Notes: generated by a model from the sequence alone, not told the origin. A stretch of DNA of 64,000 bases from Minisyncoccota bacterium (GCA_017991635.1 JAGOQE010000002.1:35018-99017); one strand, 5' to 3'. Positions 20,808 to 28,388 are shown, counted from the stretch's first letter. Numbers and translations are program-made.

Positions 20808-22931
20808 TTGACGTACAGATCAAATTTTATCCGCTATACTATATCTGTGGAATTTTTCTCGTACATTGGTTTACACACTCTATACTTGCTCGTTTTTTCT
20901 ATTGCCCTCGGGCTCGGTTTGGGTGCGTCTGCGCTGAGCCATATACTTTTTCTTTTTTCAGGTCGTGATCGAACAGTGTCGCGCGACGAGTTTAAATTGT
21001 TGAAAGTGTCGCGCATTGTGGTCTGGGTCGCAATTCTTTTGTATGGGTTTAGTGGACTAGGTCTCTTTACACTTGCGTATGAGTCGATGATTGAGCTTGG
21101 AATTTTTTACGCAAGCCTGACCATCGCAGTGATCCTTATCGGGAATGAAATTGTATTTGCTATGCGTCACCTACCTCGCGTGCGCGATATTCGCGACGGA
21201 AGGATCGCGCTCGATGCACTCGTTTTAGAAAGTGGGGCTGTATCCGCGGTCTCGTGGGTATTTTTAATGTTTCATCACACAATCTACAGGACTGATATAG
21301 GATATTTTGCATTTATGGCGCTTTACGCCGTGGCTATTGCTATTGTTATGCTTTTGACATGGACTGTACGCCGAAGAGATGCGCGCACTCACGACACAAT
21401 AGTGTTGAAGCGGTCAGTTCTTGCCGCTCTTTTTTTCGCACTTGTTTTTGCAGGTGCATGGCTCGCCAAGGCTGACAGCGTTATAAAGCCTGCCGAAATA
21501 GGAAAGCGTCTAGCCACCGAAGTTGTTGGCTCGACTTACACAATTGATGATGTTGCCCTTCATAATAATTCAGAGGATTGTTGGCTCGTCATTGATAGCA
21601 AGGTATTCAACGCGACTGAAGCGTCACGTCTTCATCCTGCAATGTTCAACTGTGGCGAGGAGGTGAGTGAGAATTATCACAAGAACCATGGCGAGGGCAT
21701 CAGAGATAAGATGATGAAGTACTACATAGGCGATCTTCGCAGCGGGAAAGGTGTAACGAATACCGACGCACCCTTCAAGAGGAACGAGACACTCAAACCG
21801 TACCGCGAGTTGTATGTTGACGAAGGATCGTGGAATGCACTTGAATTGATGCTTGTTGTTGAAAAAGATGCCGAGAAGCTCCTTGCTATCGACGGAACGA
21901 CGCACACGGTGATTGGGCGCGTGCACGATGTTGGTTTTCAGCCACACACCTCTGTCTACTCTTCGGATGCAAAATACATGTATATCATTTCTCGGGATGG
22001 ATGGCTCACGAAGATTGACCTAACTACTCTCGAGCCAGTCGCATCAGTGCTCGTAGGTGAGAATTCGCGCGGGACAGCTATCACTGATAACGATAAATAT
22101 GTTGCCATCGGCAATTACAATCCCGGGAATGTTGTTATCCTTGACGCTTCATCGATGGAAATTCTAAAAACTATACCGCTCTCGATGGAAAAGGATGGTA
22201 AACAGATTGAGTCTCGTGCGGGTGCAGTTGTCGAAGATGGAAATCGGATTATTGTTGCGCTTAAAGACGGGACCAGTGTTTGGGCGATAGATACTGACCA
22301 ATCTGGGTTCCCTGTGACGCATAAATTTTCGGACATAGGAGCCGGCAGGCCCGCGCTCCACGACGCCTTTCTCACACCAAATGGCTCGCATTATATTGTT
22401 GCATCGCAAGGATCGAAGACCGCATGGATACTTGATGTGGCGACCATGAAACCAGTTGCGGAGATAGAGACTGGCGATACACCGCACACGGGCCCGGGTG
22501 CTGCTTGGGGTAACTACATTTACATCCCGTCGTTGGGAGAGGGCCTTATTACTGTTATCGATATGACCACATGGAAGCCAGCGAAATATATAAAGACCGG
22601 CGGACCAGGTCTGTTTGTGCGGAGCTACAGTAAGGATCCGACCTATCCATATGTGTGGGCCGACACTGCATTCGGCGATCACAAGGATGAGATTTATGTT
22701 ATTGACGCGCGAGTCAATGAGATCGTGAAAACGATTATTCCGGTTAAGGGCGAAAGTTCGTGGCATCCGGAGTTCACCTATGATGGAAAATTTGTTTACG
22801 TTGTATCTCAATCTGCGAACGAAGTTGAGGTGTACGATGCGTACACCTTTGATATCGTAAAGCGCATTAAATCTGAGACACCTTCAGCGATATCTAACGT
22901 TGGCCTACGAATCGAAGAGCCAGGACTGTAA
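20808..22931 (+). CDS. Membrane-anchored fusion protein: N-terminal polytopic membrane domain, cytochrome b5-like heme-binding domain, C-terminal beta-propeller (YVTN/cd1-like repeats)
   Basis: Several N-terminal TM helices. The middle segment fits the cyt-b5 pattern (LHNNSEDCWLVIDSKVFNATEASRLHPAMF...YHKNHGEG). The C-terminal region has repeated beta-propeller-like blades. Confidence 0.6.
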   Translation: MTYRSNFIRYTISVEFFSYIGLHTLYLLVFSIALGLGLGASALSHILFLFSGRDRTVSRDEFKLLKVSRIVVWVAILLYGFSGLGLFTLAYESMIELGIFYASLTIAVILIGNEIVFAMRHLPRVRDIRDGRIALDALVLESGAVSAVSWVFLMFHHTIYRTDIGYFAFMALYAVAIAIVMLLTWTVRRRDARTHDTIVLKRSVLAALFFALVFAGAWLAKADSVIKPAEIGKRLATEVVGSTYTIDDVALHNNSEDCWLVIDSKVFNATEASRLHPAMFNCGEEVSENYHKNHGEGIRDKMMKYYIGDLRSGKGVTNTDAPFKRNETLKPYRELYVDEGSWNALELMLVVEKDAEKLLAIDGTTHTVIGRVHDVGFQPHTSVYSSDAKYMYIISRDGWLTKIDLTTLEPVASVLVGENSRGTAITDNDKYVAIGNYNPGNVVILDASSMEILKTIPLSMEKDGKQIESRAGAVVEDGNRIIVALKDGTSVWAIDTDQSGFPVTHKFSDIGAGRPALHDAFLTPNGSHYIVASQGSKTAWILDVATMKPVAEIETGDTPHTGPGAAWGNYIYIPSLGEGLITVIDMTTWKPAKYIKTGGPGLFVRSYSKDPTYPYVWADTAFGDHKDEIYVIDARVNEIVKTIIPVKGESSWHPEFTYDGKFVYVVSQSANEVEVYDAYTFDIVKRIKSETPSAISNVGLRIEEPGL

Positions 22932-24528: not shown

Positions 24529-25596
24529 ATGACCCAGTCCCAAGAAGCGCGTTTCGACTTCCCGGGTTTCAACCTGGTGAAGACGCAGGACAACGACCGC
24601 CACCAGGTGGAAGTCGGCACGATCGAGGACGGGGACCACGTGTTCACCGTCACCATGATCCGCAGCCAACAGCACCAGTTCCTCCCGTTCGCCATCTCGA
24701 CGGTGGCCGACAAGGACGGCAAAAAGATCTGGACCTTCCAGGGCGCCAAGCACGACGGTGTCGGCCTTCTGGCCTACGCCGGCGATGTGCCCGTCATCGC
24801 GCTCATCACGCGCGGCAAGGATCCCATCGTCGAGCGGGTCATTCCGCTCACTTCCCTGGTCAGCAACAAGCCCGTCGGGCTTCGTGAACTGATCAAGGGC
24901 AAGATGGGCGCCGCCATCGACCTCGACTGCCGCTACCGGCTGACCGAGGACGAGGGGAAGGTCGTCAAGATCGACGAAGGCCGGATGCACGCCGAGATGG
25001 TCCGCAAGGACCGCGAGGCGAGCGAGCGTCGGAACTCGGCCCGCGATGCGGAGAAAATCCGCAGGCAGGAAGAGGCCCGGGCACAAGAGGCGGAGCGCGA
25101 AAAGCGCGTCGCCCTGATCATGATCCGGGAAATCGTCACGGGCTACACCGCCCTGGGCGAACGGCGCTACGGCACTCCGGTCCTCGAGGCCGAGTGGCAG
25201 TCGCTTCCGAACGGCACCTTCGCCATTCTCGTCGACGCCATCGGCGAAGACGGGAAGGTCGGCAAACTGCTCGAAAGCTTCAAGATCGTGAAGCAGGCGG
25301 GCAGGCAACCGATGAAGGTGATGACCAGCCAGCTGGCCGCCAGGCAGGAAGGTCCGACGGAAATTCCGGAGGAGCTTCAGCCCACGGGCACGGTTCTGGT
25401 GGAGATCAAGGACGACTTCTTCAATGTCGGCCTCTACGCCTCCAAGGACCTGATCAACAGGGCCTGGAAGGCCGGTCTCAACGGCGGCGCCTATGTGGCC
25501 GTCGACGACCGTGACGCCGACGGCAAACTGGTCGTCTTCACCGTCACGAAGGAAACCGGCGCCAAGAAGGTCGGCTCCTTCATCCCCCTCGGCTAG
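24529..25596 (+). CDS. Hypothetical protein encoded by a strongly GC-rich (foreign-looking) ORF: two globular regions joined by a highly charged E/R-rich helix
   Basis: 355 aa; GGAG SD 9 nt upstream. The third codon position is almost always G or C (GAC, GGC, CTG, ATC, AAG, CGC...). Followed by a textbook intrinsic terminator. No family recognised. Confidence 0.6.
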   Translation: MTQSQEARFDFPGFNLVKTQDNDRHQVEVGTIEDGDHVFTVTMIRSQQHQFLPFAISTVADKDGKKIWTFQGAKHDGVGLLAYAGDVPVIALITRGKDPIVERVIPLTSLVSNKPVGLRELIKGKMGAAIDLDCRYRLTEDEGKVVKIDEGRMHAEMVRKDREASERRNSARDAEKIRRQEEARAQEAEREKRVALIMIREIVTGYTALGERRYGTPVLEAEWQSLPNGTFAILVDAIGEDGKVGKLLESFKIVKQAGRQPMKVMTSQLAARQEGPTEIPEELQPTGTVLVEIKDDFFNVGLYASKDLINRAWKAGLNGGAYVAVDDRDADGKLVVFTVTKETGAKKVGSFIPLG

Positions 25597-25645
25597 TCCG
25601 AGTACTGCACCTTAGGCCCCACCCAATTGGCCTTTCAAATGGGAA

Positions 25646-25678
25646 CCCCGTAGTCATGCGACTACGGGGTTTTGTTTT
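25646..25678 (+). terminator. Intrinsic terminator of the GC-rich gene
   Basis: Perfect 10-bp stem ccccgtagtc / gactacgggg with an atgc loop, followed by TTTTGTTTT. Confidence 0.7.
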
Positions 25679-25686
25679 ATACAGAG

Positions 25687-25717
25687 CGCCCCTGAAGACC
25701 TTCGGTCTTCAGGGGCG
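25687..25717. other. Second GC-rich hairpin (about 14-bp stem, 3-nt loop) between the convergent genes
   Basis: gcgcccctgaagacc-ttc-ggtcttcaggggcg. No clear T-tract on either strand. Confidence 0.4.
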
Positions 25718-26974: not shown

Positions 26975-27277
26975 TTACTGCACCGTCGCCGGGACTCCCA
27001 GATGACGCTTGATGCGGTCGGCGAGCGTTCTGGACTCACGAGCGATGCCCGTGTAGTGGCAGAACTTGCCGACCTTGGTGATCTCGACCTTGCCGTCCTT
27101 GTGGACGATGTCGAGCGTGCCGCCGTAGACTTCCTGCAGGGCCTCGTAGGCCGAAACGGGAATGGCGCCGGCGCGGTCGGGCATCCAGGCCTTTATGGGA
27201 AGCTCGACCCCCTTGGAGGTGAGTCCCGTAGCCGGCGGCTTCTGGACGACGGCTTCAAAGTCGATATTGCTGGCCAT
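26975..27277 (-). CDS. Hypothetical small protein (100 aa) encoded by a GC-rich ORF
   Basis: AGGGGG SD 6 nt upstream of the ATG. G/C-dominated third codon positions like the 24529..25596 gene. No family recognised. Confidence 0.55.
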   Translation of the reverse strand: MASNIDFEAVVQKPPATGLTSKGVELPIKAWMPDRAGAIPVSAYEALQEVYGGTLDIVHKDGKVEITKVGKFCHYTGIARESRTLADRIKRHLGVPATVQ

Positions 27278-27359
27278 GTGGCCCCCTGTTGAGTGGTTTT
27301 TGAGTTTACTAAAACACCATCATTGGAGCGCACCTTATACTCGATGTGCTTCCTTTACT

Positions 27360-27368
27360 ATTATACCA
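27360..27368 (-). promoter_or_regulatory. Extended -10 promoter element TGgTATAAT (minus strand) for the small GC-rich gene
   Basis: A perfect TATAAT hexamer preceded by TGn on the minus strand, about 83 nt upstream of the ATG at 27277. The surrounding sequence is AT-rich. Confidence 0.45.
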
Positions 27369-27385
27369 TAATTATGAAAAAAGCG

Positions 27386-27421
27386 AAAGGACGGCAACCG
27401 GGGTTAATCGGGCCGTCCTTT
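27386..27421 (-). terminator. Intrinsic terminator of the 27429..27857 gene (minus strand)
   Basis: 10-bp stem aaaggacggc / gccgtccttt, with an inner extension, followed on the minus strand by CGCTTTTTTC. Confidence 0.6.
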
Positions 27422-27428
27422 GCATAGG

Positions 27429-27857
27429 CTAGAAAAGCATTACGCGTTGCCCGCTCTTCTCCTCGCCAAAGAGGCTTGGATCAAGAAGCGTGCGTGACGT
27501 GACTGATTCTGGCGCAGGTGCTCTACGTTGTCTGGCGTAGTGCGCTCTGTTTGAAAACAGTTTGCTCACCGCGGAACTATAGGCATCAAACCTGACGCTG
27601 TCGTTCCTGCACTGCTGAGGCAGGAGTCGAAGCAGCGTTTCGCGCTTGGCCGTGTAGAAACTCTTCGGCCGGCGTCTGTGCTTCGTGTACCAGTGAACAC
27701 CGACAGCGTTCGCGAGTGTGCGAAGCATGTCTGGATCAAGTGTGGCACCCAAAACGACACGCTTATCTTTTCCGCGACCTACTGTGTGATCGCTACTAGC
27801 ATATGCAATTCCCTTGGCCACATCGGCCGTGGAGAAATGCAGAAATGAACTCTCCAA
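27429..27857 (-). CDS. Hypothetical Arg-rich protein (142 aa), TTG start
   Basis: TTG start with an AGGAGG SD 7 nt upstream. Consensus-like promoter upstream and terminator downstream. No family recognised (contains HWYTKHRRRP). Confidence 0.5.
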   Translation of the reverse strand: MESSFLHFSTADVAKGIAYASSDHTVGRGKDKRVVLGATLDPDMLRTLANAVGVHWYTKHRRRPKSFYTAKRETLLRLLPQQCRNDSVRFDAYSSAVSKLFSNRAHYARQRRAPAPESVTSRTLLDPSLFGEEKSGQRVMLF

Positions 27858-27908
27858 CGACGCCTCCTATGGCTACAGGGAAACAAGTATCAATGTTCTT
27901 TGCTCTAA

Positions 27909-27936
27909 ATTCTAGTATATAACTTAGACTTGTCAA
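27909..27936 (-). promoter_or_regulatory. Sigma70-like promoter TTGACA-N16-TAGAAT (minus strand) for the 27429..27857 gene
   Basis: Perfect -35 TTGACA (27931-27936, overlapping the yqeY stop) and -10 TAGAAT (27909-27914). Confidence 0.45.
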
Positions 27937-28388
27937 GCAAGAAGCTTATCAACAACTGCTTTAACGGTTGCACCGTCTGCCTTTCCTTTAAGTTCTTGCA
28001 TAACTGCACTCATAAAACGCCCTGTATCTTTTTTGTCGGTGATACCAAGTTCAGCTTTCTTAGCCTCTGCAATAGGGAAGACCTCTTCCTCGCTCATGAG
28101 TGTGGGGAGATATGCCTCAAGTAGAGCGAGCTCTTCCTTCTCGGGAACTGCAAGCTCATGGCGTCCTGCATTTTCAAACTGTTCTATTGAATCTTTACGC
28201 TGACTTGCGGCACGCTTGATTACAGCAAGCGCTTCCTCATCAGTGAGAAACTCATCGGGCTTGCGCTTCTTTGAGACAACCTCATTCGTCATCATCGTTG
28301 AAAGGGAGCGAAGGGTACGGAGGCGAATGCCGTCACGCGCTTTTAATGCTTCTGGGATACCTTGTTTGATTGATTCGTGTAGCGTCAT
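27933..28388 (-). CDS. GatB/YqeY domain protein
   Basis: About 151 aa of YqeY-like sequence (MTLHESIKQGIPEALKARD...). Start moved to the internal ATG. Confidence 0.7.
   Translation of the reverse strand: MTLHESIKQGIPEALKARDGIRLRTLRSLSTMMTNEVVSKKRKPDEFLTDEEALAVIKRAASQRKDSIEQFENAGRHELAVPEKEELALLEAYLPTLMSEEEVFPIAEAKKAELGITDKKDTGRFMSAVMQELKGKADGATVKAVVDKLLA

Follow-up and report, generated by a model that had tools for sequence, protein, structure and literature searches.

The β sliding clamp (DnaN) is bound by proteins that carry a short motif beginning with Gln. Examples of such motifs include QLVLGL in Pol IV, QLSLPL in Hda, and QVELEF at the C-terminus of Pol III α. The published clamp-binding consensus is QL[S/D]LF (PMC9690074), and the motifs have been revised to Q-Φ-x-[L/M]-[F/L] and Q-Φ-x-[L/M]-x-[F/L], with QVEMEF of RecB as a validated clamp motif at 2 µM (bioRxiv 10.1101/2025.08.20.671105). 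YqeY possesses a GatB-like domain of tRNA-binding type, and elsewhere in bacteria its gene pairs with that of the small basic ribosomal protein bS21 (PMC13374519). Here, we investigated a stretch of 64,000 nucleotides (nt) from a Minisyncoccota bacterium (GCA_017991635.1 JAGOQE010000002.1:35018-99017; hereafter the window, with positions counted from its first letter), in which a small gene that we call X (27429..27857, minus strand) lies 3′ of yqeY. We found that X is very likely a real, vertically inherited chromosomal gene with its own promoter and terminator, encoding a basic protein of an undescribed family of the candidate phyla radiation (CPR). The protein ends in a Gln-initiated motif that resembles those of clamp binders, and we discuss what this resemblance may mean.

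Gene X, its signals, and its protein family

X is a genuine gene under purifying selection. Codon alignments with three relatives gave a ratio of nonsynonymous to synonymous substitution rates (dN/dS) of 0.08-0.11 at a synonymous divergence (dS) of 1.2-1.8, and the same ratio was 0.08-0.14 for truB and 0.02-0.03 for yqeY. Five proteins 78-91% identical to X were recovered by a word-indexed search, and phmmer, run exhaustively against 1.84 billion representatives, yielded 23 X-family clusters, all of 97-148 amino acids (aa). Could the open reading frame (ORF) nonetheless be spurious, with its signals belonging to a small RNA (sRNA) or a regulatory region? Gene calls do disagree at this locus, the NCBI ORF being shorter and one caller placing wrong-strand ORFs next door. 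However, the substitution pattern has already refuted this idea, to which we assign a negligible probability: dN/dS is near 0.1 at saturated synonymous sites, the 23 divergent homologue clusters are of the same length, the fold is predicted with confidence, and Rfam has no match in the region.

The NCBI call differs from ours at the start codon. In the public record (MBP6868787.1 / KBC16_01620), X is a 130-aa protein that begins at a GTG 12 codons downstream of the TTG at 27857-27855. The 12 codons omitted from that record (27822-27857, minus) encode the family-wide N-terminal motif M-x-x-SFxHFS, and distant family members begin the SFxHFS motif region with ATG. Because the omitted residues are the conserved N-terminus of the family, the TTG start is correct and the NCBI start is wrong by 12 codons. 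The full coding sequence runs from this TTG to a TAG stop (27431-27429) and specifies 142 aa, 16 of which are Arg, consistent with the Arg-rich product of that length reported in a preliminary description of the segment.

The promoter, Shine-Dalgarno, and terminator features of X exceed chance. The -35 hexamer TTGACA (27931..27936, minus) contains the TGA stop codon of yqeY (27935-27933) and is invariant in three relatives, which we label L001, L007, and L008. After a 16-nt spacer follows the -10 hexamer TAGAAT (27909..27914, minus), conserved in relatives and reading TAGAGT in L008. The Shine-Dalgarno sequence AGGAGG (27863..27868, minus), likewise conserved, lies 5 nt ahead of the start codon. 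Across the three relatives these elements and the TTG are the same or nearly the same, and the intervening leader is variable. TTGACA-16-TAGAAT is the sole 11/12 match to the sigma-70 consensus in the window, where 10/12 matches occur at just five sites. In the segment from 24 to 29 kb, a scanner detected 7 promoter-like sites when 2.3 were expected. A homologue of X that is 25% identical, in L010, also has its own promoter, TTGACA-17-TATACT.

X ends in an intrinsic terminator (27377..27423, minus), a hairpin at 27423-27383 followed by TTTTTT at 27382-27377. Its folding energy is -22.7 kcal/mol (z = -5.99), a stability that none of 200 shuffled sequences reached; a simple terminator scanner overlooked this hairpin, whose loop, bulge, and inner stem fall outside its criteria. 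The stem is kept in relatives, and in L001 a C-G pair has become U-A by compensatory exchange. The next gene, p100, has an extended -10 element (TGGTATAAT, 27368-27360) that begins 9 nt beyond the T-tract of X. The preliminary description had listed the TTG start, the AGGAGG sequence, the TTGACA-N16-TAGAAT promoter over the yqeY stop, and the hairpin and T-tract ahead of the next promoter, and every one of these details is accurate. The terminators that it named for neighbouring single-gene units were also located, at 26951-26915 (minus) and 25642-25673 (plus). No terminator is present between yqeY and X, and read-through from yqeY is therefore possible.

X founds a previously undescribed small family, seen so far only in Paceibacterota/Parcubacteria, members of the CPR. 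Among 25 loci bearing the family, all 11 that have an organism title come from this group. For structure prediction, isoelectric point (pI), and database comparisons we used an alignment of 27 family sequences, all of which are basic (pI 9.7-11.1; 10.3 for X). With this alignment, AlphaFold2 modelled X with a predicted local distance difference test score (pLDDT) of 83.4 and a predicted template modelling score (pTM) of 0.70, and the tail was of low confidence. Residues 1-112 (27522..27857, minus) form a predicted helical core domain with helices at residues 10-21, 42-59, 64-78, and 84-112. Residues 23-36 (DHTVGRGKDKRVVL; 27750..27791, minus) are an insert, present only in a subset of the family according to the alignment, with a predicted β-hairpin at residues 24-35. 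The core motifs of the family are LDxDxLRxLAN, AKREVL, and AYSSAVSKxFSxR. The core is followed by a basic, disordered linker (residues 113-135; 27453..27521, minus; pLDDT 59-68) that is rich in Lys and Arg and variable in the alignments, with a semi-conserved hydrophobic patch, DPSLFGE. The last seven residues (136-142, GQRVMLF; 27432..27452, minus) form a conserved C-terminal motif.

This family has no described relative in the profile and structure searches, which bears out an earlier remark that the protein has no motif that could be placed. X alone matched no Pfam, NCBIfam, or PHROG family, and PADLOC returned only Cas1 at an E-value of 0.024. When all 27 members were compared with Pfam, NCBIfam, PHROGs, and PADLOC, no consistent match emerged; the only matches were isolated, unrelated, single-member ones, such as 1 of 27 to PADLOC LeoC and 2 of 27 to PHROGs at E-values near 0.01. 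A profile search of PDB sequences with the family gave E-values of at least 0.5, and a Foldseek comparison of the X model gave no significant relative, the uS7 matches having E-values of at least 0.14 and template modelling scores below 0.2. Homology to a housekeeping family was thus not found in the Pfam, NCBIfam, PDB, and fold searches.

Inheritance of X and turnover of the slot 3′ of yqeY

The inheritance of X is old and mostly vertical, with its neighbours within its own clade; X is not a recent acquisition. All close relatives with enough flanking sequence keep the order yqeY-X-p100-truB-p104-p355-p132. The wider conserved order is CorA-CysS-DnaB-RecR, then L21-RmuC-P-type ATPase, and then YqeY-X-p100-TruB-p104, p355, and p132. 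X occupies the same position in L001-L008, and yqeY, the conserved upstream anchor of the slot (27933..28388, minus; 151 aa from ATG; Pfam YqeY, 6e-37), is 94-96% identical in relatives. Family members are usually found immediately 3′ of yqeY, even when divergent. The 25% identical homologue in L010 is flanked by yqeY and truB within the same block, and a 29% identical homologue in L011 lies 3′ of yqeY after an 84-aa gene call. A hidden Markov model of the family detected genes of the X family just 3′ of yqeY at 11 of the 80 GTDB Paceibacterota loci, scattered over the YqeY tree and including its deepest branches.

When GTDB species representatives were scanned with a YqeY alignment, all matches came from metagenome-assembled genomes (MAGs) of Patescibacteria/Paceibacterota/Kaiserbacteria type, at no more than 73% identity. 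A GTDB genome scan with the close-family X alignment found nothing, and the genus of the window is therefore not among the GTDB species representatives. The window itself is an ordinary CPR chromosome that encodes MreB, penicillin-binding proteins, Mur ligases, MraW, several aminoacyl-tRNA synthetases, DnaB, RecR, and RmuC; dnaN lies outside it. Around X we found no integrase, no transposase, and no flanking direct or att-like repeats. Neither INPHARED phages (50,697 records, searched with tblastn) nor PLSDB plasmids (72,556) contained a match to X, and IMG/VR had none with two motif sets, in scans that were motif-seeded and could miss very distant relatives. No partner gene of X recurs across contexts, whether the neighbours are yqeY/truB, Sua5, or an extracytoplasmic function (ECF) sigma gene. 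The earlier suggestion that X is cargo, read as a recent acquisition, is not supported, given the gene order kept in close relatives, a dN/dS near 0.1, and the lack of an integrase, flanking repeat, or plasmid match in these searches.

How stable is the slot in other lineages? In sister lineages, this position 3′ of yqeY is a hot spot at which genes replace one another. A clean case is the comparison of L035 with L047, whose sequences agree at 88-93% from rmuC to yqeY and at 91% on the downstream side. All similarity is lost from the yqeY stop to a T-rich sequence common to both (L035, 4456-4861; L047, 4456-4811). The slot in L035 holds a short X-family gene and that in L047 holds a gene of about 85 aa from another family, labelled c20, each with its own Shine-Dalgarno sequence and terminator. 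L015/L016 and L019/L060 show the same pattern. Of the four yqeY pairs that are closest to each other, three have entirely different slot contents. At other GTDB loci the slot is filled by other small ORF families, three of which we labelled c20, c8, and c7; these are chemically diverse and some are acidic. The possibility that c20, c8, and c7 are extremely diverged X homologues was ruled out by hhalign probabilities below 6%.

These replacements were seen among sister lineages and not within the clade of the window itself. We infer that X lies 3′ of yqeY because this old slot, prone to recombination, accommodates small lineage-specific genes, and not because of an operon partnership. The segment had also been described as a mosaic accessory patch. 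That description holds for the slot, which is swapped on the scale of the phylum, but not for X itself, which is stable in its own clade within a syntenic patch.

The C-terminal motif and the possible functions of X

The C-terminus of X fits the family pattern G-Q-x-x-[LMFW]-x-[FLI], in which G136 and Q137 are nearly invariant. The G-Q pair and the hydrophobic residues at +3 and +5 are kept among members that share just 25-40% identity; for example, two published Parcubacteria MAGs, L053 and L069, read QLSFRF and QLHFRF. Because several members have extra residues after the motif, it is a linear motif and not a C-terminal tag, and it has the characteristics of a short sequence used for docking. 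Compared with the clamp motif Q-Φ-x-[L/M]-x-[F/L], QRVMLF agrees at Q1, M4, and F6, which matches the core pattern Q-x-x-[L/M]-x-[F/L] of the hexapeptide consensus, and carries Arg where an aliphatic residue is called for at position 2. In the family as a whole, about one member in three has Leu at position 2; L, M, F, and W occur at position 4, and F, L, and I at position 6. The motif of X lies in an accessible, flexible part of the protein, at the extreme C-terminus behind a linker of low pLDDT.

These features suggest a model in which X would work by itself, as an adaptor or regulator associated with nucleic acid. Its basic core and linker may contact DNA or RNA, and the C-terminal motif may dock on a hub protein, most plausibly the β sliding clamp. 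That X is a nucleic-acid-associated adaptor with a docking tail is a tentative proposal, possible but short of an even chance. That the hub would be DnaN, as the resemblance of the motif suggests, is doubtful. The broadest version of the proposal is rather unlikely: the family might represent a CPR-specific class of clamp-docking proteins, each with a small basic helical domain held to DnaN by the C-terminal motif. They would be lineage-specific regulators of replication or repair, in bacteria that may lack regulators of the Hda or YabA type, encoded in a slot that swaps small-protein cassettes between species.

Several observations weigh against docking on the clamp through this tail. Position 2 of the motif is Arg in X and variable in the family, whereas the consensus is aliphatic, and position 4 is often Phe or Trp instead of Leu or Met. 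The invariant Gly that precedes the Gln is no known feature of clamp motifs. Six short family members lack both linker and tail, and the core must therefore be able to work without the tail. In the AlphaFold2 model the tail appears as a weak β-hairpin (residues 130-132 paired with 138-140), and such a hairpin could pack within the protein itself or serve another kind of interaction. X shares no transcript with a clamp, polymerase, or repair gene.

What else could a small, very basic protein do in these bacteria? The main rival to the adaptor model is a translation- or tRNA-associated RNA-binding factor that would cooperate with the tRNA machinery encoded nearby or act at the ribosome. The neighbours are tRNA-related in two contexts, YqeY and TruB in the window, and Sua5/TsaC in L096 and L101 with TsaD in L101. 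The strong basicity of X, the best consensus promoter in the window, and the pairing of yqeY with bS21 in other bacteria all point in the same direction. However, X has no similarity to bS21 or to any ribosomal or RNA-binding Pfam family, the uS7 matches from Foldseek are insignificant, and a family as patchy as this one (11/80 loci) would be unusual for a core translation factor. Adjacency to yqeY is itself weak evidence because unrelated small genes, including ones with acidic products, also occupy this hot spot. We regard a role in translation as unlikely. A transcription regulator, or a factor associated with RNA polymerase or sigma, was considered as well, but most family members are not close to sigma genes, no DNA-binding Pfam family matches, and AlphaFold2 predicts residues 42-59 as one continuous helix and not a helix-turn-helix. 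Such a function seems very unlikely.

The turnover of the slot raises another possibility, that X is an accessory conflict gene, namely a toxin or antitoxin, an anti-phage or anti-defence protein, or a phage remnant. Its signals mark X as a putative self-contained transcription unit, the slot is cleanly replaced between the near-identical genomes L035 and L047, and X evolves faster than its neighbour, falling to 25% identity where YqeY retains 65%. The neighbours p100 and p355 also have anomalous G+C contents at third codon positions (GC3, 0.83-0.87). Weighed against this, no cognate partner was found, the comparisons with defence and phage families gave nothing beyond isolated single-member matches, and the searches of IMG/VR, phage records, and plasmids and the inspection for an integrase or flanking repeats were all negative. 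X is under purifying selection, and relatives with saturated synonymous sites (dS 1.2-1.8) retain the synteny of the entire patch. The specific identities floated in the preliminary description fare no better: for a toxin or antitoxin, X is a single gene between its own promoter and terminator, beside yqeY and p100, which differ from it in roles and signals, with no recurrent partner and no Pfam, NCBIfam, or PADLOC toxin or antitoxin match; for an anti-phage protein, PADLOC gave no consistent match; and for a phage-derived gene, X had no PHROG match and IMG/VR and INPHARED were negative. Altogether, we consider a conflict function improbable, and among these readings we favour the adaptor model as a working proposal.

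Neighbouring genes and comparison with described systems

The genes downstream of X, p100, p104, p355, and p132, are all conserved in close relatives, and one of them accompanies X elsewhere. In L096 (2330-4511), Sua5 is followed by an X homologue that is 48% identical, a gene for a 91-aa secreted protein, and then a convergent p355. L101 (247-2339) has the same arrangement of X, the 91-aa protein, and p355 beside an ECF sigma gene, and neither locus has yqeY or truB. The p355 homologues in these loci are ~43-44% identical. This co-occurrence outside the yqeY context may represent a functional link or residual synteny. A full functional tie between X and p355 was rejected: no X occurs within 8 kb of the distant p355 homologues, the X homologues L095 and L012 lack p355, and the association is partial. 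The preliminary description had asked whether homologues of X co-localise with those of the 100-aa and 355-aa proteins. They do in the clade of the window, and for p355 also in L096 and L101, but the link to p355 breaks elsewhere.

The p355 gene (24529-25596, plus) and the p100 gene (26975-27277, minus) differ from the rest of the window in base composition. Their GC3 values are 0.87 and 0.83, respectively, when all other real genes in the 64 kb have values of ~0.39-0.57. Relatives show a similarly high GC3 for both genes (0.73-0.88) although synonymous divergence is saturated, and the bias is therefore not a trace of recent transfer. Ordinary expression-linked codon bias was also rejected as the source, since the gene for ribosomal protein L21 reaches just 0.49. 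The p355 gene contains three imperfect 33-nt copies (24601-25278, plus) about 300-350 nt apart, which hints at an internally repeated domain structure. Two strong hairpins lie between the convergent p355 and p104 genes (25642-25717), the terminator at 25642-25673 and a perfect 14-bp hairpin at 25687-25717.

The region at 27278-27368 (minus) comprises the extended -10 element of the p100 gene (TGGTATAAT) and its untranslated leader of ~80 nt. This leader is almost unchanged in L001 and resembled by that of L008, and no Rfam family matched here at the gathering score. Gene callers err over the p100 homologue, with a wrong-strand 123-aa ORF called in L001 (8476-8847) and in L003-L005 and an extension to 147 aa in L007; the true p100 homologue lies on the strand of X in L001 and L003-L005.

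Other features were observed farther from X. A 707-aa protein in the window (20808-22931, plus) has both a cytochrome b5-like domain and a heme domain of the cytochrome d1 (NirS) type (Pfam, 7e-68). Such a protein would not be expected in a CPR genome. In L010 (2614-5262), a distant relative, DnaB contains an intein that includes a LAGLIDADG domain. In L099 (16247-17011), a diversity-generating-retroelement pair, bAvd and a reverse transcriptase, lies ~7 kb from a distant p355 homologue.

Why single out one small protein in such genomes? CPR/Patescibacteria genomes are full of small proteins without an assigned function, and X stands out among them as constrained, well-signalled, and endowed with a confidently predicted fold that has no known relative and with a conserved terminal motif for docking. 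If the motif does bind the sliding clamp, the family would offer a first handle on the regulation of replication or repair in reduced, uncultivated bacteria. The slot 3′ of yqeY provides a concrete hot spot for studying gene turnover in streamlined genomes. If none of these readings holds, X would be one more conserved hypothetical protein.

How does X compare with described systems? The best compact structural match, the lambda Q antiterminator (PDB 4mo1), has a score within background and 12% sequence identity, and X lacks a zinc site and any supporting context. bS21 (rpsU) shares with X a small, helical, very basic character and a position adjoining yqeY, but X is twice as long, lies downstream of yqeY and not upstream, is patchily distributed, and has no sequence similarity. 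The idea that X is a divergent bS21 was tried and dropped: phmmer with E. coli and B. subtilis bS21 sequences found nothing in the family or in the window, and Pfam gave no match. Single-gene hot-spot cassettes, such as those in defence and anti-defence islands or orphan toxin and immunity genes, resemble X in having their own promoter and terminator and in occupying a slot that is exchanged among close relatives. Unlike them, X has no known defence, toxin, or phage family, no partner, and no mobility genes, and it is constrained in its own clade. The motif-bearing β-clamp binders differ from X in their structured domains, since that of X is not homologous to Pol IV, Hda, Pol III α, or RecB. 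X is nevertheless like them in that a disordered basic linker ends in a short motif that starts with Gln and has hydrophobic residues at +3 and +5, and in that the motif is conserved whereas the linker is not.
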